Below, in pieces: positions 3 through 50,036 of a stretch of 64,000 nucleotides of DNA; position 1 is the stretch's first letter; each line of letters opens with the position of its first letter. A model generated the notes under the pieces. That model was not told the origin of the DNA. It saw nothing but the letters and a program-made list of their open reading frames with translations, and did no database searches. The position numbers and the translations under genes are program-made. Origin of the DNA: Bdellovibrionales bacterium (GTDB lineage Bacteria; Bdellovibrionota; Bdellovibrionia; Bdellovibrionales; UBA1609). Where the stretch lies: NCBI GenBank assembly GCA_965205945.1, contig CBDBIB010000001.1, positions 448,001-512,000 of the forward strand, in the 5' to 3' direction.

Positions 3-746
3 AACTCAACAACTCTAGCCTTTAATTTTGCAAAATCCATGGGCAAAGAACTTAGAGCTGTTGGAATCAATTTTAACTTTTCTCCTTGCACAGATACTTT
101 ACTAAATAACAAGAATAACGTTATTGGTGACAGGGCTTTTTCCAACAATCATCATATTGTTGGAAAGCTAGCTTCTTGTATAATTCGTGGCTTTAAAAAA
201 GAAAATATTCTTACCTGCATTAAACATTTTCCAGGACACGGATACTCCGCTCTTGATAGCCATAATGAGTTACCTATTGATGACCGCAGGCTAGAAGACA
301 TTCATGAAATTAACGCTTTTAAAAAAACTCTTAAAACTAAACCTGAATTTATCATGCCTGCACACATTATATTCCCAAAAATTGATCCCTATTTTCCAGT
401 TACTCTTTCTAAAACATGGATAAAAAATGTTTTAATTGATCAATTTAATTGCAGGTCATTTCTAATTTCAGATGATTTAGATATGGGGGCTCTTAATAAT
501 TATGACTTTGATATGATGGTTAAGCGCATTTATAACTTAGGATTTCATCAACTTTTATTCTGTCACAGTCATGAAAAAGCCCAAAAAGCTTTGGAGTTAC
601 TAAACCAATCTTGTGAACTTGATAAAATTAGACTCAACCAAATTCTAGATTTAAAAGATAATACTCATCTTCTTGGACCTGATATTCTCAATGATGATAT
701 AATAGGGCACAAAGAACATAAAAAAATTGCTGATCAATTTAAATAA
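3..746 (+). CDS. nagZ: Beta-N-acetylhexosaminidase (GH3), 5'-truncated by the window edge
   Basis: KHFPGHG...DSH motif and SDDLDM nucleophile region; frame is open from position 3 to the ATG at 39. Confidence 0.9.
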   Translation, partial: NSTTLAFNFAKSMGKELRAVGINFNFSPCTDTLLNNKNNVIGDRAFSNNHHIVGKLASCIIRGFKKENILTCIKHFPGHGYSALDSHNELPIDDRRLEDIHEINAFKKTLKTKPEFIMPAHIIFPKIDPYFPVTLSKTWIKNVLIDQFNCRSFLISDDLDMGALNNYDFDMMVKRIYNLGFHQLLFCHSHEKAQKALELLNQSCELDKIRLNQILDLKDNTHLLGPDILNDDIIGHKEHKKIADQFK

Positions 747-781
747 TTATTCTATTTTTAAAACACTCATAGGAGCTCATT

Positions 782-1609
782 ATGCTTAAAAAAATTATTA
801 CCCTATCTATAATATGTACTTTTTCATTTACGGTATTTGCTGAAAAAAATATTTTCACTGATGAAGAGTTTAAACAAAATGAGTTTGATCTTATAAGCAA
901 GGACTTAGTTGCAGCCTTTGCTCATACTATAAACTCTGGAGGTTCATCTTTAGGAAAAATTTGGGGCCTTGAAGCCGGTATTGTTGCAGGTATTTTATCC
1001 TCTAAGAATTTAGAAAATGTTGCTAAAAACATTTCTGGCATAAAACAAGACAACTTTTCATACATACCTTACGCTGGTTTTATTGCAGGCGTTACACTTC
1101 CTTTTGGAATAGGTTATGAGTTAAATATAATTCCTACTCTAGGTCTAGATTTCGAAAACGACTCCTTTTTTAATACCAGCACTGCTTTAAGATGGTCCGT
1201 AACTGACCTTATTCCAATAGTAGGAACATTCTCACCGTTAAAAATTGCTCTAAAAGCTGCTTTTGGGAAAACAGCAGTTAAGTATACCTTTAATATTAAT
1301 ACAGACTCTGAAGAAAAAACTGATTTTAAACTTAATAATACTGAGCTTGGTATTGTTGCAGGATTTAATTTATTTTTAATTGAACCTTATCTTGGCTTAA
1401 GTCATGTCAAATCAAAAACTAGATTACACGCATCAACCAATATTAAAATTCCAGGTATCATTACAGAACAGACTTTAAAATCAGATTTATCAGGAACCAG
1501 AACAATTATTGGTCTTTTATTTAAACTACCCATATTTAGAATTGGTCTAGAATGGTCTAATTTACAAGATTCTAATAGATACACAGCAAAGCTGTCTTTA
1601 AAAATTTAA
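782..1609 (+). CDS. Exported hypothetical protein, probably an outer-membrane beta-barrel
   Basis: Signal peptide ending FTVFA; Gly/aromatic-rich alternating strands; C-terminal YTAKLSLKI; SD AGGAG upstream. Confidence 0.6.
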   Translation: MLKKIITLSIICTFSFTVFAEKNIFTDEEFKQNEFDLISKDLVAAFAHTINSGGSSLGKIWGLEAGIVAGILSSKNLENVAKNISGIKQDNFSYIPYAGFIAGVTLPFGIGYELNIIPTLGLDFENDSFFNTSTALRWSVTDLIPIVGTFSPLKIALKAAFGKTAVKYTFNINTDSEEKTDFKLNNTELGIVAGFNLFLIEPYLGLSHVKSKTRLHASTNIKIPGIITEQTLKSDLSGTRTIIGLLFKLPIFRIGLEWSNLQDSNRYTAKLSLKI

Positions 1610-1650
1610 AAACCCTCTCATAACCCATCTAGTTTTTTATAAAAATAGTT

Positions 1651-2675
1651 AACCCGAATTCGAACTTTTTAAATCTGCTGTAACATTCTATTCTCATGGG
1701 TTTGAATACGAATTGATAGCTTAAAAGGGCGCAGAAATATGCTGTTAGTGCTGACAAAACATTTATCACAAAGTTTAAACTTTGATGTCAAGAGTGTTCA
1801 ATGTGAAACTCTTCTTTTAAAATTCCAAAAACAGTCTCAACAATATATCTTTTCCTCAGTAACAGTTTGTCAAATAGTGGAACAAACCTATTTTTCATAT
1901 TTGATTTTAAATTCGTAATCAACTAAACACCTTTAGCCATAAGTTTTTTAAAGAACTTCTGGAAGATGTCCCCCTTATCACCAAAAAATTTTCCTAAAAA
2001 AAAACCATGAGCAAGATCTTCTAGAGGTTTTTTATCATGTACATTTCCTGGAGTTATTGTGAAGTTTAAAAGCCCCCCTTTGTGAGAAATAATGATGTGA
2101 ACTTTAAACCCAAAGAACTAAGCCATTGTTAACCTTCCTTTCTTTGCAAGCCTTTTAAAGGTTTCGTGTCGGTTGATTCTTTTGTTATTGCAAACAACTA
2201 AAGGGCTTAAATCAACTATGGAAATTTTAGTGCAAAGATTTGATTGCATCAACGAGTGTAGAAAAATAAAAAGATGTGGAGCCAAAGATTTTTTAAGTTC
2301 TACAAACCTGTTGTAAGATAAGCGTTTTGGGAAATCTGCTTTTAAAAAGCTTTAAGTATAGCCCTGTGTAGAAAGCCTTAAAATTCCTGAACCCAGAAAA
2401 TTAAAATAATAGACATATGGTGATCACTTCTGATTCTGATAACGCCGGGGGAAAACCTTCCTTCTTCTTACTGGATATAAGCTTGCGTTGCTCTTTATGA
2501 AATCCTAAAATAAAATCGCCAACAAGAGTAAAAACTTCTATAAGTTGATTCTCTTTAATCATTCCCAGCTTCTTTTTTGCAGATTAGTTAAAAACAAAAA
2601 ATAAATCTTACAAAAGACTGGGGTGATCTTTTATTTATTCAGGGCTTAGATCCTGAATAAGTCCAAATTCGGGTT
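1651..2675 (-). mobile_element. IS982-family element with a pseudogenised transposase
   Basis: Terminal IRs aacccgaattcgaactt (1651-1667) and aagtccaaattcgggtt (2659-2675), 15/17 match; minus strand from ATG 2562 reads MIKENQLIEVFTLVGDF...LSESEVITICLLF*; later fragments FFGFKVH and FGDKG; several stops and frameshifts. Confidence 0.9.
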
Positions 2676-2939
2676 AGATAAGATTTCATAGGTTTAAGAG
2701 TATCCACGCATGGACTTTTCTAGCCTCAAGTAAGCCTCTTTTTTCCTCTTTAGTTGTGGTTTGATTGTAAGCAGCTAAGTTCTTAAAATGAATTCTTTTA
2801 CGTTTTAAAAGCTTAAGGGCCCTGACAAAGCCTCTAACTCCACTTTTCTTTTAAAAAAAACCTTTTTGTCTTATCAACACTTGAATAATTTATACTTGTA
2901 AGTTTAATTAAATATTTAACTTTCAAAAAGGTAATTATA

Positions 2940-4010
2940 ATGTTTATTAAACGTACTTTTTTTATATTTTGTTTTTGTGCCATCAATTCTCAACCTTTAA
3001 GAGCTCAAGTCAGTTCTTTTTCTCAAGCAAGCTCACCTAGATCCAACCCCAATATTAGCGTTAATGTATTAATGTTAGGACGCACTGGAAATAGTGGAGA
3101 AAGCGCCTTATCTAAAAACCCGAATGGACTTCAACTTCAAGAAGTTGAGACAAGGTTTACCTCAAACATTGACAGTTACTTTATGGGTAATGTCGTGCTT
3201 GCTATTGAAAAAGAAAATGAGGAGTTTAAAGTTGAACCCGAGGAAGTTTTTATTCAAACACTTTTCCTACCTTCTTTTACAATTAAGGCTGGAAAATTCT
3301 ATGCCCTTTTAGGACGCCACAATCATCTTCACACTCACTCGTTTCCATTTATTAATAAACCCCTCACAAATGAAATTTTATTAGGAGAGGAAGGTTTAAA
3401 TGAAGAAGGGGTAGCTATATCTTACTTGGTTCCAACCTCTTGGTATTTTGAAATAGTTGCACAGGGTTTTTCAGCAACCAACGAAATTCTTTTTAATAGC
3501 ACGAGTAAAAACGATATTACAGGCATTTTATTTATAAAAAACCTTTGGGATTTAAGTGATGCTTCAACATTTGAATTTAATCTTGCCTATGCAAATGGAA
3601 AAAACTCATTTAATGGAACAACTTACCTTTATAACGCCTCTGCAACTTATAAGTGGCGCCCTATTCAAAAATCTATAAACCATAGCTTTTCTTGGACCAT
3701 TGAGTTTTTACAATCTCACAGAGAAAATGCTACAAAGGATAAAAAAATTGGTGGTATTAGTTCCTGGGCACAATGGCAACTTACAAGACGTTGGTGGCTG
3801 CAAGGACGAGGCGAGTACCTTGGACTGCCAAAACCGGATGCTGGCACAATAACAAAATATTCAGCCCTTGTAGGGCTTGCCCTAACTGAATACTCAGCTT
3901 TAAGACTTCAATACGATAAGATTAACCAAAATTCTCATAGCAAAAACGAGCACCATATTTCCTTACAGTTAAATGTTAGCCTTGGCGCACATCCAGCGCA
4001 TAACTACTAA
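2940..4010 (+). CDS. Putative outer-membrane beta-barrel linked to metal uptake
   Basis: Signal peptide; His-rich GRHNHLHTH; C-terminal LGAHPAHNY; directly upstream of a metal SBP and permease. Confidence 0.7.
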   Translation: MFIKRTFFIFCFCAINSQPLRAQVSSFSQASSPRSNPNISVNVLMLGRTGNSGESALSKNPNGLQLQEVETRFTSNIDSYFMGNVVLAIEKENEEFKVEPEEVFIQTLFLPSFTIKAGKFYALLGRHNHLHTHSFPFINKPLTNEILLGEEGLNEEGVAISYLVPTSWYFEIVAQGFSATNEILFNSTSKNDITGILFIKNLWDLSDASTFEFNLAYANGKNSFNGTTYLYNASATYKWRPIQKSINHSFSWTIEFLQSHRENATKDKKIGGISSWAQWQLTRRWWLQGRGEYLGLPKPDAGTITKYSALVGLALTEYSALRLQYDKINQNSHSKNEHHISLQLNVSLGAHPAHNY

Positions 4011-4020
4011 GAAAGTAAGT

Positions 4021-4929
4021 ATGAAAAAAATCCTTATTTTTTTACTAATATCATCACTCACCCCAGTGACAGCCTTTGCTAAATTAAATGTGCTCACTAC
4101 CACTACCACCTTAAAATCCATTGCAAAAAGTATTGGTGGCAAATATGTCAAAGTTAATTCAATTACAAAAGGGACACAAGATCCTCATTTTGTGGAAGCA
4201 AAACCTTCATATATGGTAAAAGCTAGACAAGCTGATTTAATAATTGCTGTTGGTCTAGACTTAGAGATTGGGTGGCTACCAAATATTATCCGAGGCTCAC
4301 GAAATCCTAAAATTATGGATGGAGGCCCCGGCTATTTTCAAGCCAGTCGTTTCATTACCCCTATTCAAGTACAAAAAGGTCGAGTTGACCGCTCTAAAGG
4401 TGATATTCATGCACTTGGAAACCCCCACTTCATACTTGACCCCCTTCGCACCATAAAAATTGCTAAAGCCCTTTCTAAAAAATTCTCTAAACTAGATCCC
4501 AATAACGAAATTTACTATAATCAAAATGCAAAAACTTTTGAAAAAAAAATCAATCAAAAGCTTTTAAAATGGCATAAAAGAATTAAACAAAAAGGAATAA
4601 AAAAAGTTGTCACTTATCACAAAACACTTAGTTATTTTCTTCACCGCTTTGGCTTAAAACTGTCAGGAGAAATTGAAACTAAGCCCGGAGTGCCACCAAC
4701 TATAAAATATATTCTTTCTCTTATGGAAACTATTAAAAAAGAAAAAGTCTCCTGTATCTTAGTTGAAAGCTTTTTTGAAACAAACACTGCTCAAAGAATA
4801 AAAAAAAATGTCCCTCTTCAAATTAAAGTCATACCAACTGAAGTCAATGCAACAAAAAAAGCCACAAACTATGAGGCTTTGATTGAAACCATAGTAGCCT
4901 CAATTGAAAGTTGTACAACAAAAAAATAA
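4021..4929 (+). CDS. Metal ABC transporter substrate-binding protein (ZnuA/TroA-like)
   Basis: Signal peptide from ATG 4021; QDPHF, GNPHF and VTYH metal-binding motifs. Confidence 0.9.
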   Translation: MKKILIFLLISSLTPVTAFAKLNVLTTTTTLKSIAKSIGGKYVKVNSITKGTQDPHFVEAKPSYMVKARQADLIIAVGLDLEIGWLPNIIRGSRNPKIMDGGPGYFQASRFITPIQVQKGRVDRSKGDIHALGNPHFILDPLRTIKIAKALSKKFSKLDPNNEIYYNQNAKTFEKKINQKLLKWHKRIKQKGIKKVVTYHKTLSYFLHRFGLKLSGEIETKPGVPPTIKYILSLMETIKKEKVSCILVESFFETNTAQRIKKNVPLQIKVIPTEVNATKKATNYEALIETIVASIESCTTKK

Positions 4930-36675: not shown

Positions 36676-38709
36676 TTAATCCCTAAAAACCGTAATACCA
36701 TGAACTTTCCAACCATCTTCATGCACAGAAGTATCTGAGGCAATTCTAAATCTTAATTTAAAAGATTCAGCTCCAGCAATGGCGTCTGAGATATCAATAA
36801 TTGAAGAAGCTATACCCTCAGTCCAGCCGCTGTATTTAGCAACTTGGATCCAAGTTGTTTCATCTGTAGAAACCTCTACATACCCGTAATCATACTTATT
36901 TTCTAGCTCATATTCATTTTGTAATTTTAAAAAAATCTTATCTCCAAAAGCGACTATAGGCTCCGCTATTGTTAATGAAAAATCTGCATTTTTATCATAA
37001 TTTTTACCTGGAGAATCTGAGAACACAGTTGATCCATTTTCTAATGTCTCTAGCCCCCAAGTTCCCGTAACTATAATTCCGCTTAAAGAGTCAGTACTGT
37101 ATTCATGTAAAACTTCAACTCGAAGAGTTGCAAACTCAATAGACTCAGAAATTTCACTAATGTTTCCAAGATCATCTAATGCTTTTACAGCAACATAGCC
37201 TGTCGAGTTAATACCTAAATCATCTAATATGACTGTTGCTATACCACGTTGAATCGACACATCACTTAAAACTGTTGTTGCTAAAGCCCAATTCTCATCA
37301 GTAATTGGTTTATCTAAAATTCTTATTTCATACTCACTAGCTTTACCCTTAAAACCATCATCCCCGCTTACGTTAAAACCAATTTGAATTGAATCCACTT
37401 GATTTTGAACAACTTCTAATCCATTAACTTTTGCTGGAGCTATTTTATCATCTTGAAGAGATAATAAAGCGTTTGCTCTTTTACCAGAAACTAATTTAGA
37501 AGATAAACTGCTTAGAGCATCGCCTGTATAAATAATTCTCTTTCTAATTCTATCCATAGATTCGTTAGGGTATCTAGCTTTAATAAAAGCTGCTAAGCCT
37601 GCTATATGAGGAGCGGCCATAGAGGTTCCACTCATCATCTGATACCCACCACCTGGTTTAGTGGAATAAACATCTACTCCTGGCGCTGCAATATGCACCT
37701 TCTTTTTGCCATAGTTTGAAAAAATTGCTAGTTCATCTAATGAATTTACTGCTGCAACAGAAATAATATTTTCTAAGTCATGATTTGCTGGAAAAAATGA
37801 GCTTCTATCATTATTTTTTGAAGAGTTTCCAGCTGCAGCAATAAATAAAATTTGATAATCTCTTGCTTCCATGATTGCTGCTTTAATTGTTTCTGAAGGC
37901 CCCCCCCCTCCCCATGAATTATTTGTAATATCAACGCCAATTTTTGTTGAATACTCAATGGCTTCAACAAGTGCTTCTGTTGTTGTTCTGCCTGTATCAC
38001 TAAAAACTTTAAGCCCCACTAATGAAACTTCCCAGTTCACTCCAACAACACCTACACCGTTATTCCCAGTAGCCCCAATAGAACCTGCACAATGAGTTCC
38101 ATGTCCGTCGTTATCCATAGGATCATTATCATCATTTATAAAATCCCAACCCCTATGATCATCAATATATCCATTTTCATCATCATCAATACCATTAGTA
38201 GCTTTTTCATTGCCCTCAGAGTCTAAACCTGTTTCACCAGGATTAGCCCAGTAGTTATCCTTTAAATCAGGATGATTATAATCAACACCTGAATCAATAA
38301 TGCCTACTAAAACTCTTCTTGAGCCTATATTTGTTTCCCAAGCCTCTGGCATAGACATACTTTCCATCCCATATAATTTAAAATATTCAGGATCGTTTGG
38401 AGCAGCTAATAGTTTATATATTGCGTTCTTCTCTACATACTCAACATTAGAGTCTTGCCTTAAATCTTTCATTACTTTTTTAAGATCAACTACACTTGAA
38501 AATTTTAAAAGTTTTGCTCCACTGGCTCTGAATTCTTTTTTTTCTTGAGCACTGTATTTCATTATTGTTGTTTTAAAACTTGAATTATGAAATTTAACAA
38601 TCAACTCATGAGGGACAAAGTCTTGAGTTTCTTGATTTTTTTCCTCTGCGGAATTAACATTAGTCATATTTATAAAAAACATTAAAATAAAAAATAACCC
38701 TCTAAACAT
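36676..38709 (-). CDS. Secreted S8 subtilisin-like serine protease with C-terminal beta domains
   Basis: Signal peptide and propeptide; triad IIDSG, HGTHCAG, SGTSMAAP; AAAGN; C-terminal YDYGYVEVS..W..FRIASD. Confidence 0.93.
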   Translation of the reverse strand: MFRGLFFILMFFINMTNVNSAEEKNQETQDFVPHELIVKFHNSSFKTTIMKYSAQEKKEFRASGAKLLKFSSVVDLKKVMKDLRQDSNVEYVEKNAIYKLLAAPNDPEYFKLYGMESMSMPEAWETNIGSRRVLVGIIDSGVDYNHPDLKDNYWANPGETGLDSEGNEKATNGIDDDENGYIDDHRGWDFINDDNDPMDNDGHGTHCAGSIGATGNNGVGVVGVNWEVSLVGLKVFSDTGRTTTEALVEAIEYSTKIGVDITNNSWGGGGPSETIKAAIMEARDYQILFIAAAGNSSKNNDRSSFFPANHDLENIISVAAVNSLDELAIFSNYGKKKVHIAAPGVDVYSTKPGGGYQMMSGTSMAAPHIAGLAAFIKARYPNESMDRIRKRIIYTGDALSSLSSKLVSGKRANALLSLQDDKIAPAKVNGLEVVQNQVDSIQIGFNVSGDDGFKGKASEYEIRILDKPITDENWALATTVLSDVSIQRGIATVILDDLGINSTGYVAVKALDDLGNISEISESIEFATLRVEVLHEYSTDSLSGIIVTGTWGLETLENGSTVFSDSPGKNYDKNADFSLTIAEPIVAFGDKIFLKLQNEYELENKYDYGYVEVSTDETTWIQVAKYSGWTEGIASSIIDISDAIAGAESFKLRFRIASDTSVHEDGWKVHGITVFRD

Positions 38710-47327: not shown

Positions 47328-47361
47328 AAAAAATAAACCCTTTTTTAAACAAGAGGGTTTA
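47328..47361 (-). terminator. Putative intrinsic terminator downstream of the AAA+/CUB gene
   Basis: Minus strand UAAACCCUCUU-loop-AAAAGGGUUUA followed by a U run. Confidence 0.55.
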
Positions 47362-47407
47362 CTTTAAAATTAAACTTTAAAAATATATTTAAGTAAGACT
47401 GTTTTTA

Positions 47408-49654
47408 TTATTTTAAATAAGCCCTAAAAGGAACTTTATCTCTGGGCCCTATTCTTCTTAAAAACTTATTATCATCAGTTAAAAACCCATGCCCATTATT
47501 ATTTCTAATGTCTGCTTCAAACTCTAAAGAAACTTCATCAACATTAATTGTAAACATTAAATTGTCCCCTGGGTTTTTAGTAAAATTAATCTCAGCTTGA
47601 TGATTATTCAAATTACCATACTCTAATTGAAATTCTGCAATTCCACCAATAATAATGTTTTCCATAAGCCTTTCAATGGGACGAGAGCCATAAAGTGGAC
47701 TTTGTCCATTTATAGCTATAAATTCTAAACTCTGAGCATCCATTGTTAGTGTCCAGCCAAAACGTTTTTTTACTTTACCTGCTTTTTTTAAATAAAGGGT
47801 ATTAGACATTTGTCTGTATTGATCTAAAGTAAATGGCCTAGAAATCACCACATCATTAAATCTATTTAAAAAGCTAAGTCTAAAAGTCTGTTGCAGCGCT
47901 TCATTTGCAAGTCTTTCTAGCTCTGGATGATTAGGGTTTTCAAGGATCACTTCATGGCCTGCGTTTGTTGTCATAAATATAAATGCTCCACGGGCAGAAA
48001 GGGGTCTTTGAAATTTATCATAGAACAATCCATCATCCATTAAAAAAAACAACTGATCTAAAATTGAAGGATTTGCTTTATCTATTTCTTCAAAAAGATA
48101 AATTGCAAAAGGATAAAGGGTTAAACTTCTTGCCATGGTTTCTACAAACCGTTCAAAACTTGCATCTGTTTGATACCCTGTCATGTCAAACGTTACAATT
48201 CTCATGTCTAAAGCACTTGCTGTTGATTTTGCCAAATGTGATTTTCCAGTTCCTGTAGGGCCTGCAAGAAGTAAATTTGCAACTGGTTTTTTAGTAGTTC
48301 TTCCTACAACATAACCAATTTTTGCCTCTCTTACCACAGCCTGACGACCTTGATCAGCACCAATGACATCTTCACTCAAATATTGCTCTAAATTTTTAAT
48401 TCTCTTAAATTTTTTATCTACAATCCACTCTGGAACTTGAATGAATGAAAAGACAGCATCTCTAACATTTTCAAAGCTCACCCTGTAAGGCTCAACTCTC
48501 TCTCCCTTAACCTGAGTGATTACAAACCCCTCAAACTGAGTCAAACTGTTACTGTTAAAAACCAACCTTAAGCTATTTGTTTTAAACATTTCAGATTCAA
48601 AGGCACCAAGCTCACCGGAATATCTTGCAAGTTCAACACCACTAACAGCATCATAGACTCTTAAAGTATCCAATACTCTTTCCGTATGAAAAGAATCAAA
48701 AACTATAGCTAGGCTGACCACTTCAGGCCTATTTATTATAAACTCTAAATTTGAATTTGGTTCATACTCATGAGGAGTCTCTACAGCTGACTCAAGAACA
48801 ATATCTGTACGAGTGGTTACGGTCTTAACTTTTCTAAGAAGAGATTTTAAAACATTCATTGTTCTTTCTGGTTCATTAATATTGGGCTGATAATGTTGTA
48901 AAGTATTAATTAAATATTTTCTATTGCTCTTTGACAATAAAACGTTAGGGTAAAGAACCTTTAAATAGGTTTTAACCATTTTTCTAACGTCATCTTCTAT
49001 AAGAGCCTCTAAGTTAATTTTTTCAGCAAAAGAGTTTACAACATAAGAATGCTCACTATTTCGAATACGCTCATATTCATACTTATTAACAAAGGCTACA
49101 GTCTTCATTCTACCTGCTAGTATATTGGCTGAATACTCTGTCTCTATTCCCGATGCATCGTTTGAATGAGAACCTATTCCAATTAAAGACCATAAACTTC
49201 TAAAATACAAAATAGCATCTTTCCCATCAACTGGGTTTAAAATACTCTCTAACCAATACTCATCAACTTCACCAACATACTTATGCCCAGCTTCAATCTT
49301 ATTAATATCCACTTCAATATGCCAATCTTTAACGCAACCTTTAGGCTTTTGCATTTGTGCAAGTCTTGCAAAAACATACCTATAAGCATCACTAGCTTCA
49401 CCTACTAATAAGACCGATCTATTCTGATCATCACTACAAAAAACATCAATCATTCTACTTACAACATCATCATAGATATTTAACTCCCCCATAACTTTAA
49501 TATAATTAGTCCAGGACTTATGTACTGGATACTGATTCGATCCAGGCCCAACTATATAACCAGACTTTAAAAGTTTTTTTAAATCTGGCTCTTCTTGCGC
49601 CACGGCAGAAAATACAAATATAGAACAAAGCAATACTTCCACTATTAATTTCAT
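47408..49654 (-). CDS. Exported ClpA/ClpB-like AAA+ protein with an inserted CUB domain
   Basis: Signal peptide ending SAVA; degenerate D1 retaining AGHKYVGE; CUB-like aa ~290-383; D2 GPTGTGKS, FEEIDKA, MTTN, FLNRF, YGSRPIER; SD AAGGGGG. Confidence 0.85.
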   Translation of the reverse strand: MKLIVEVLLCSIFVFSAVAQEEPDLKKLLKSGYIVGPGSNQYPVHKSWTNYIKVMGELNIYDDVVSRMIDVFCSDDQNRSVLLVGEASDAYRYVFARLAQMQKPKGCVKDWHIEVDINKIEAGHKYVGEVDEYWLESILNPVDGKDAILYFRSLWSLIGIGSHSNDASGIETEYSANILAGRMKTVAFVNKYEYERIRNSEHSYVVNSFAEKINLEALIEDDVRKMVKTYLKVLYPNVLLSKSNRKYLINTLQHYQPNINEPERTMNVLKSLLRKVKTVTTRTDIVLESAVETPHEYEPNSNLEFIINRPEVVSLAIVFDSFHTERVLDTLRVYDAVSGVELARYSGELGAFESEMFKTNSLRLVFNSNSLTQFEGFVITQVKGERVEPYRVSFENVRDAVFSFIQVPEWIVDKKFKRIKNLEQYLSEDVIGADQGRQAVVREAKIGYVVGRTTKKPVANLLLAGPTGTGKSHLAKSTASALDMRIVTFDMTGYQTDASFERFVETMARSLTLYPFAIYLFEEIDKANPSILDQLFFLMDDGLFYDKFQRPLSARGAFIFMTTNAGHEVILENPNHPELERLANEALQQTFRLSFLNRFNDVVISRPFTLDQYRQMSNTLYLKKAGKVKKRFGWTLTMDAQSLEFIAINGQSPLYGSRPIERLMENIIIGGIAEFQLEYGNLNNHQAEINFTKNPGDNLMFTINVDEVSLEFEADIRNNNGHGFLTDDNKFLRRIGPRDKVPFRAYLK

Positions 49655-50036
49655 CTACGCCCCCTTTTATTTATGAAATAGTTTATACTAAATGCTATCC
49701 CAAACTAATAGCCAAGTAAAGCCTGCAAACCATCATTATTTTAATTAGCTCTAAAAAGGTTAACTTAATTAGCTATCAACGGTATTCTTATATTATAAAG
49801 CTTTTTCTACGCAGTTTTAATAACCATTTTTTATAAAGAGCTATATTTTAAAGAAATCTATAACTTAACAATACATTATCTCTTCATCTAAAGGTTTCAT
49901 TATTTCTACATGTTTATTGATAAGTTTAATGAAATTTTCTCTAAGTACCCTTAGCAGTTTTTAACTTCTAACTTTGGATTTTAAAAATCTTAAGACTATA
50001 GTTTAAACAAAATAATTTACAGACTCTAAAAACAGT

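Follow-up and report, generated by a model that had tools for sequence, protein, structure and literature searches.

The gene described here lies in a 64,000-nucleotide (nt) stretch of the genome of a Bdellovibrionales bacterium (assembly GCA_965205945.1, contig CBDBIB010000001.1, positions 448,001 to 512,000; this whole stretch is called the window, and positions are counted from its first letter). It is intact, consisting of a single open reading frame of 748 codons plus a stop, and we confirmed that its 748-amino-acid (aa) product combines a Sec-type leader, a catalytically dead Clp D1 tier, a CUB domain at the position of the ClpB M-domain, and a live D2 tier without a pore loop. The explanation that we favor, and to which we give a probability of roughly one half, is that the protein represents a Sec-exported family derived from Clp/Hsp100 proteins and seen so far in Bdellovibrionota, whose members would act as extracytoplasmic rings powered by D2, gripping through the D1 channel and bearing CUB domains on the rim. 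The original prediction, which had been made from the DNA letters, knew of no description of such an architecture, and our literature searches on periplasmic or secreted AAA+ proteins, bacterial torsins, and Clp or CUB proteins of Bdellovibrio turned up none, a result that is provisional because subscription journals were mostly uncovered.

Domain architecture and its conservation

A word-indexed search returned 37 full-length proteins of 691–780 aa with identities of 42–100% (42–78% for the relatives), and search scores dropped from 636 to 103 bits between this family and ordinary Clp proteins. The family has at least this many full-length members, as an exhaustive search of representative sequences added others, including forms of 588–708 aa whose match skips the insert, which are relatives without a CUB domain, and one form of 841 aa with an N-terminal extension. 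A trypsin-like identity for the N-terminal extension of P0137 was considered and found no support in Pfam. Mean pairwise identity within the family is 0.19 in the signal peptide, 0.58 in the large subdomain of D1, 0.36 in the CUB domain and 0.62 in the large subdomain of D2, indicating that the dead D1 is as constrained as the live D2. Comparison of the sequences thus confirmed that the gene belongs to a conserved family, whose 37 full-length members share the same plan of leader, dead D1 and D2 loop deletion, and that it is not a decaying clp copy.

The best match in the Protein Data Bank (PDB) was ClpB of T. thermophilus, which HMMER aligned over residues 62–668 (E = 1e-35). Relative to ClpB, D1 has other residues in place of the Walker A Lys-Thr, of the Walker B Asp-Glu and of its two Arg fingers, and the same is true across the 37 aligned relatives; in the window protein the stretch that has lost the Arg fingers reads Y-V-V-N-S-F (residues 204–209), just before the small subdomain. 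The canonical pore loop of this tier is retained, with Tyr at its aromatic position in 33 of the 37 sequences, Phe in three and Leu in one, followed by an invariant Val, and a second D1 loop (G.GSHSND.TGIE) forms a run of invariant and near-invariant columns. The D1 loops were named after the ClpB pore-loop numbering and definitions in PMC6546751. Both the ClpB alignment and the column counts therefore bear out the earlier claim of a D1 that has lost its catalytic motifs and kept its pore loop.

In D2, the Walker A motif (GPTGTGKS), a Walker B Glu-Glu, sensor 1 (TTN) and an Arg finger are all readable, and Pfam AAA_2 matches residues 456–601 (E = 1.4e-18). The Walker A Lys, the Walker B Glu-Glu, the sensor-1 Asn, the Arg finger (R592) and the sensor-2 Arg (R658) are each present in 37 of 37 sequences, and on this evidence the D2 ATPase site appears to be under strict selection. 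The Pfam domain ClpB_D2-small scored 22.7 bits against a cut-off of 21.9 in the window protein and was matched by all 37 relatives. No length variation was seen across the family alignment at the junction where the D2 pore loop is missing, and reading of the sequence and alignment between sensor 1 and the Arg finger did not reveal the IGF/IGL tripeptide used for docking to ClpP. An intact D2 from which GAPPGYVG is deleted and which has no IGF had also been predicted, and these observations agree with it.

Models of the fold were consistent with the alignments. AlphaFold2 (AF2), run on the family alignment, gave a whole-protein model with a mean predicted local distance difference test (pLDDT) score of 87.2 and a predicted template modelling score of 0.71, and Foldseek matched this model to two-tier ClpA, ClpC and ClpB chains over 660–800 columns (E about 1e-34), so that the monomer model supports the predicted fold of two Clp tiers plus a CUB domain. 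Assignment to a named Clp protein was far from reached, as the top NCBIfam match was ClpA at 124.4 bits against a cut-off of 993.15, and ClpB scored 119.4 against 1232.1. PADLOC gave generic AAA+ matches only for the ATPase (DolB, 2.4e-10). A search of the window protein with Clp_N (PF02861) in Pfam found no match; the mature N-terminus is instead a family-specific segment of 40 residues.

Evidence for export

The leader contains one Lys, a hydrophobic core of 12 residues and A-V-A followed by Q-E, as read from the sequence and from a hydropathy script, in agreement with the signal peptide originally proposed. In 33 of the 37 relatives the leader opens with basic residues, continues with a hydrophobic core and has small residues at positions -3 and -1; the other four have truncated or doubtful starts. 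The character of the leader is thus preserved across the family at a sequence identity of 19%. Among the relatives without a CUB domain, a leader could be read in 9 of 11, one of them with an L-I-G-C lipobox, and the remaining two look truncated. The Shine-Dalgarno sequence AAGGGGG, at a spacing of 5 nt from the ATG, backs the start codon and hence the leader, and together with the conservation of the segment that follows the leader it rules out a later start.

The cysteines of the mature protein follow a pattern of their own. C73 and C107 are jointly present in 50 of 53 aligned members and jointly absent in three, and never occur singly; in 41 of the 53, the mature part contains two cysteines in total. 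Such joint retention or loss is what a structural disulfide formed in an oxidising compartment would be expected to produce. Because the leader is conserved, the cysteines are kept or lost together, and one relative without a CUB domain has a lipobox, the Clp-like protein is likely to be exported from the cytoplasm.

The CUB domain

The original prediction placed a CUB domain where ClpB carries its M-domain, and several lines of evidence support this. In the window protein, Pfam CUB (PF00431) matches residues 290–380 with 20.9 bits, slightly below the cut-off of 21.4, and among the relatives it was matched in 31 of 37 at E ≤ 0.01, with a best value of 4.8e-10. A profile of the insert found cubilin in the PDB (1.3e-25), along with the CUB domains of PCPE-1 and neuropilin. 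Modelled alone by AF2, the insert reached a pLDDT of 91.3, and the top Foldseek matches of this model were nearly all CUB domains (enteropeptidase, C1r, PCPE-1, Kremen, neuropilin, MASP), with TM-scores of about 0.6–0.69. Residues 280–387 are all beta in the whole-protein model, and in the HMMER alignment the M-domain stretch of ClpB lies opposite residues 276–392.

Within the wider exported family, which also has forms lacking it, the CUB domain is an insertion found in one part. It shares its fold, profile-level similarity and the D.L.I.D motif with the CUB domains of animal proteins (cubilin, PCPE-1, neuropilin, C1r/C1s, MASP), and differs from them in lying within an ATPase and not in a row of extracellular modules. 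Conserved disulfides are typical of the animal domains, whereas the one described here has no cysteines. In one relative (L008, protein P0008), the CUB domain is enlarged by an insert of some 55 residues, many of them Asp, Gly, Glu or Thr.

An operon partner in most relatives

Scanning of contigs from the genomes yielded 24 loci of the family, in assemblies named Bdellovibrio, Pseudobdellovibrio, Bacteriovoracia, Halobacteriovorax and Oligoflexales. Two of these loci carry the labels Sulfitobacter (L017) and Limisphaerales (L024); the gene order at L017 is that of a Halobacteriovorax locus (L016), and the L017 contig has therefore probably been mis-binned. In two of the 24 loci the gene is truncated at its 5' end, which leaves 22 in which a partner could be assessed. 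In 16 of these, a hydrophobic orphan protein of about 212 codons (212 aa) is encoded directly upstream on the same strand, with gaps of 3–45 nt where measured (10 loci); it lies downstream in one, and none is in view in five. The association also holds from the partner side, where the ATPase is the next gene in 10 of 13 metagenome loci, two loci end too early and one has an unrelated gene (10 of 11 assessable). In a sample of 301 genomes of the phylum, the ATPase was found in eight, the partner in eight and both in seven, with three candidates scored per genome in the ATPase search.

The partner family comprises 50 clusters, all unnamed and without Pfam domains. Its members are moderately hydrophobic and begin with a leader-like segment; hydropathy peaks of 1.4–1.8 on a 15-residue window leave the number of membrane spans unsure. 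Nothing usable on its identity came from Pfam, NCBIfam (E ≤ 10), PADLOC or a PDB profile search, and its best score in the ESM Atlas was 0.85, under the value of 0.9 below which a match is only a lead. Complex prediction for the L001 ATPase and its partner gave a score of 0.00, which is evidence neither for nor against pairing. The orphan partner probably works with the ATPase at the membrane in most relatives.

The window's genome departs from this arrangement. It is rated 97% complete, the partner was not found anywhere in it at E ≤ 0.01, and it is the only ATPase-bearing genome without a partner in the 301-genome sample. L008, the only other visible locus from the eight-row clade of the window protein (see below), also has no partner. 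The claim that the gene stands alone with its own Shine-Dalgarno sequence and terminator thus holds in part: the Shine-Dalgarno sequence and the wide gaps to its neighbors (382 and 457 nt) agree with it, the terminator is weakly supported, and the solitary arrangement is a peculiarity of the window's lineage, since in most relatives the ATPase is the second gene of a two-gene operon.

Paralogues of the partner were observed in other settings. At L044 (G165:C5, positions 803–4364, reverse strand), the next gene after a paralogue lies about 4 nt away on the same strand and encodes a 966-aa protein in which a Sec-type leader is combined with a PPDK_N ATP-binding domain (5.5e-37), a second kind of apparently exported ATP-binding protein beside the orphan partner family. 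At L043 (G210:C28, positions 334–4209, reverse strand), a paralogue (E = 3.3e-37) precedes two tandem genes for 544-aa leucine-rich-repeat proteins with signal-like leaders, and no ATPase of the exported Clp-like family was seen in that genome, which counts against a general rule that the partner accompanies an ATP-binding protein.

Distribution and phylogeny

A phylum search at a threshold of 1e-40 gave 92 matches, 84 of which cover D2 alone (1e-41 to 1e-48); we read these 84 as canonical Clp genes and the threshold as too loose. For a tree of the D2 region, 67 rows were used, of which 16 were canonical Clp sequences (P0038–P0053), after P0020 and P0037 had been excluded as truncated. The 51 family rows were split from the 16 canonical rows with a support of 100 in the Shimodaira-Hasegawa-like approximate likelihood ratio test (SH-aLRT). 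Forms without a CUB domain fell mostly at the base, in no resolved order, and the window protein was placed within clades of five and eight rows (SH-aLRT 99).

A shared motif at the C-terminal tail (Arg, a hydrophobic residue, Tyr or Phe, and 0–3 further residues, often x-Asp) was observed in alignment A1 in about 20 of the 42 members with a CUB domain. It occurs in none of the 11 forms without one, is absent from the window protein, and is independent of the presence of the partner. The motif was considered as a docking site for the partner and rejected, as L006 has the motif without a partner and L001, L004 and L021 have a partner without the motif.

Comparison with known systems

The protein resembles ClpB/Hsp104 in its two stacked AAA+ tiers, in a D2 composed of AAA_2 and ClpB_D2-small with full catalytic residues, in its recognisable D1 pore loops, and in having an accessory domain inserted at the end of D1. 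It differs in that a signal peptide stands in place of Clp_N, D1 has lost its catalytic motifs, the coiled-coil M-domain has given way to a CUB beta-sandwich, and the aromatic pore loop of D2 (GYVG) is deleted; the NCBIfam equivalog cut-off for ClpB is far from reached. ClpA and ClpC provide the best fold matches of the whole model and the top NCBIfam match. However, in contrast to these partners of ClpP, the protein has a dead D1, has no D2 pore loop, shows no IGF/IGL loop on reading, and misses the ClpA cut-off.

Torsins resemble it in a signal sequence, a (here predicted) location beyond the cytosol, a D2-like AAA+ domain that has no pore-loop motif, and a membrane-protein partner, whereas they are single-tier proteins without an Arg finger of their own and with a Cys in sensor 2, as described in PMC4999309. 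The protein studied here has two tiers and a CUB domain, with an invariant Arg finger and a G-S/A-R sensor 2, and it scored 18.1 against a cut-off of 27 with Pfam Torsin, for which weak matches were found in 18 of the 37 relatives. Clp-type ATPases outside the cytosol of their producer are represented by Plasmodium HSP101, in the PTEX translocon, and by human CLPB/Skd3, in the intermembrane space of mitochondria, and an HSP101 structure (6e10) was among the PDB sequence matches. Both are eukaryotic threading motors that keep their pore loops, and neither is known to have a CUB domain; HSP101 consists of two tiers with an M-domain. The protein studied here does not fit the definitions of ClpB, ClpA/ClpC or torsins, and we infer that it works most like a hybrid of them.

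Proposed mechanism and evidence against it

According to the explanation that we favor, the mature protein would form rings outside the cytoplasm. An oligomeric ring is suggested because the D2 Arg finger, which acts in trans on the neighboring subunit, has been retained. D1, which keeps both channel-lining loops, would no longer bind or split ATP, while D2, with a complete ATPase site and without its own gripping loop, would supply nucleotide-driven movement. With the ATPase in D2 alone and gripping loops in D1 alone, the protomers may be shifted by cycles of D2 while a polypeptide or other ligand is held in the D1 channel. The CUB domains would sit on the rim, and could target or gate the machine because they stand where the M-domains of ClpB regulate the motor. 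An alternative mode would be torsin-like, without threading; torsins, too, have no pore loops and rely on a partner in the membrane (PMC4999309). The ATP could come from prey or lysate, from leakage, or from a supply through the membrane.

It is possible, if doubtful, that such an Hsp100-type ATP-dependent machine outside the cytoplasm is anchored or supplied with nucleotide by its partner, in the manner of the endoplasmic reticulum ATP importer that serves lumenal chaperones. A role in nucleotide supply is hinted at by the partner paralogue in G165, which sits 4 nt upstream of the gene for the leader-bearing PPDK_N protein. A search for the ATP/ADP translocase PF03219 found none in the bacterium's own genome, but none in the control genomes either, and is therefore uninformative.

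Several observations weigh against the explanation that we favor. The periplasm is generally held to be without ATP, which such a machine would need. The Walker B motif of D2 is Glu-Glu instead of Asp-Glu in 37 of 37 sequences. The proposed disulfide between C73 and C107 is argued from covariation. A mechanism based on the partner is not applicable unchanged to the window's own genome. Full-length matches to the ATPase are sparse: of the 301 genomes sampled from the phylum, 8 have one, and the two further genomes that represent the bacterium's genus in the sample have none (three candidates scored per genome). The function of the family is therefore not a core one.

Alternative explanations

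The protein might instead be cytoplasmic or face the cytoplasm, the hydrophobic stretch being a membrane anchor or unused and the protein a specialised Clp chaperone, and to our knowledge all characterised bacterial Clp/Hsp100 proteins are indeed cytoplasmic. However, positive charges before the hydrophobic core, acidic or neutral residues after it, and small residues at -3 and -1 would place the bulk of the protein outside, and the paired cysteines, the lipobox variant and the CUB module all point in the same direction, which makes this explanation rather improbable. An exported protein that works independently of nucleotide, with D2 as a scaffold and with the D1 channel and CUB domain serving a periplasmic holdase or an adhesin-like binder, would suit an ATP-free periplasm and would be in keeping with a D1 that is already a pseudo-ATPase and with the substitution of Glu for the Walker B Asp throughout the family. 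Yet every D2 residue that binding and hydrolysis of ATP require, the Arg finger included, is invariant among proteins of 42–78% identity, which would be hard to explain without selection for catalysis, and we regard such a binder as improbable.

It is also conceivable, although we think it unlikely, that the protein is an effector which the predator secretes and which remodels or unfolds prey proteins for digestion inside the prey or its lysate. This is close to the original prediction, which also named a host interior as a site of action and an ATP sensor as a possible role. The relatives come from assemblies named after Bdellovibrio and the other taxa listed above, and the prey cytoplasm would solve the problem of ATP. 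Genes for secreted peptidases adjoin the ATPase at some loci, with a subtilase immediately upstream at L009 and a trypsin at L005, and in the window a subtilase gene lies about 9 kb away; a CUB domain was recorded in 2008 on a subtilisin-like protein of B. bacteriovorus, its role then unknown according to PMC2605481. However, the peptidase neighbors are not conserved, the family is patchy in the phylum sample, and no route across the outer membrane is evident. The membrane-protein-like operon partner suggests action at the producer's own envelope, and the two-gene operon with its hydrophobic partner points at least as much to that envelope as to prey.

Gene neighborhood and genome

The gene is flanked on the same strand by an upstream gene for a 1197-aa protein of the hydantoinase/oxoprolinase type, at a distance of 382 nt, and by a downstream nqrABCDEF-apbE cluster, at 457 nt. 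Its G+C content, about 0.32, matches that of the rest of the window, and there is therefore no sign of a genomic island. A terminator downstream of the gene is weakly supported: a hairpin followed by a U-run is present (Table 1), and it was not among the results of a consensus terminator scan. A scan of the window with Rfam gave no match. About 9 kb downstream of the gene, at positions 36679–38709 of the reverse strand, the window encodes a 677-aa subtilase with a fervidolysin-type prodomain.

The source genome (1.87 Mb in 5 contigs) contains a single copy of the exported Clp-like gene, beside genes for a canonical ClpB and a ClpA-like protein and an incomplete copy of the D2 of ClpB. Its ClpB and ClpA-like paralogues retain every canonical motif that is missing from the exported protein. 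The start of the ClpA-like paralogue could be read and shows no hydrophobic leader; for ClpB it is out of view, the locus being truncated at the 5' end. The partial copy corresponds to the D2 half of ClpB (301 aa) and adjoins a gene for a repeat protein with NPDTSNWDTSKVT-type repeats, which strongly resembles the neighbor of the full-length clpB (loci L030, G000:C3:402314-403036, and L029, G000:C2:108832-109557). This resemblance looks like a segmental duplication.

Table 1. Positions in the window of the exported Clp-like gene, of the segments of its product, and of adjoining signals.
Feature	Residues	Positions	Strand	Basis
Whole gene	1–748	47408..49654	(-)	Open reading frame list, 37 full-length relatives, AF2, Foldseek
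Shine-Dalgarno AAGGGGG, 5 nt before ATG		49660..49666	(-)	Read from sequence
Sec-type signal peptide	1–19	49598..49654	(-)	Lys n-region, 12-residue hydrophobic core, A-x-A end
N-terminal segment of mature protein	20–60	49475..49597	(-)	Motif PDL..L..SG.I.GPG, 41% mean identity
D1 large subdomain (pseudo-ATPase), holds C73 and C107	61–215	49010..49474	(-)	ClpB alignment, 58% mean identity
D1 canonical pore loop AGHKYVGE	122–129	49268..49291	(-)	Opposite ClpB AGAKYRGE loop
D1 small helical subdomain	216–279	48818..49009	(-)	ClpB and family alignments, AF2
CUB domain, at ClpB M-domain position	280–388	48491..48817	(-)	Pfam, PDB profile, AF2, Foldseek
Linker and D2 large subdomain	389–607	47834..48490	(-)	Pfam AAA_2, catalytic columns, 62% mean identity
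Junction at which the ClpB D2 canonical pore loop is missing	V504/E505	48140..48145	(-)	Gap of about 12 residues against ClpB GAPPGYVGYEE
D2 small subdomain, sensor-2 G-S-R-P	608–716	47507..47833	(-)	Pfam ClpB_D2-small
C-terminal tail and stop	717–748	47408..47506	(-)	pLDDT <50, 20% mean identity
Terminator-like hairpin, then U-run		47330..47365	(-)	RNA fold -13.2 kcal/mol, z -1.4

Implications

In bacteria, protein remodelling that consumes energy is taken to end at the inner membrane, and the known periplasmic chaperones are ATP-independent. An exported Clp protein whose ATPase site has been kept by selection would imply that ATP reaches an extracytoplasmic compartment, that the protein acts inside another cell, or that a complete AAA+ site is put to an unfamiliar use. 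The family may also offer a natural experiment in the division of labor within AAA+ machines, as the dead tier alone has the gripping loops and the tier without loops alone has the motor, and the orphan partner would provide a second experimental handle.

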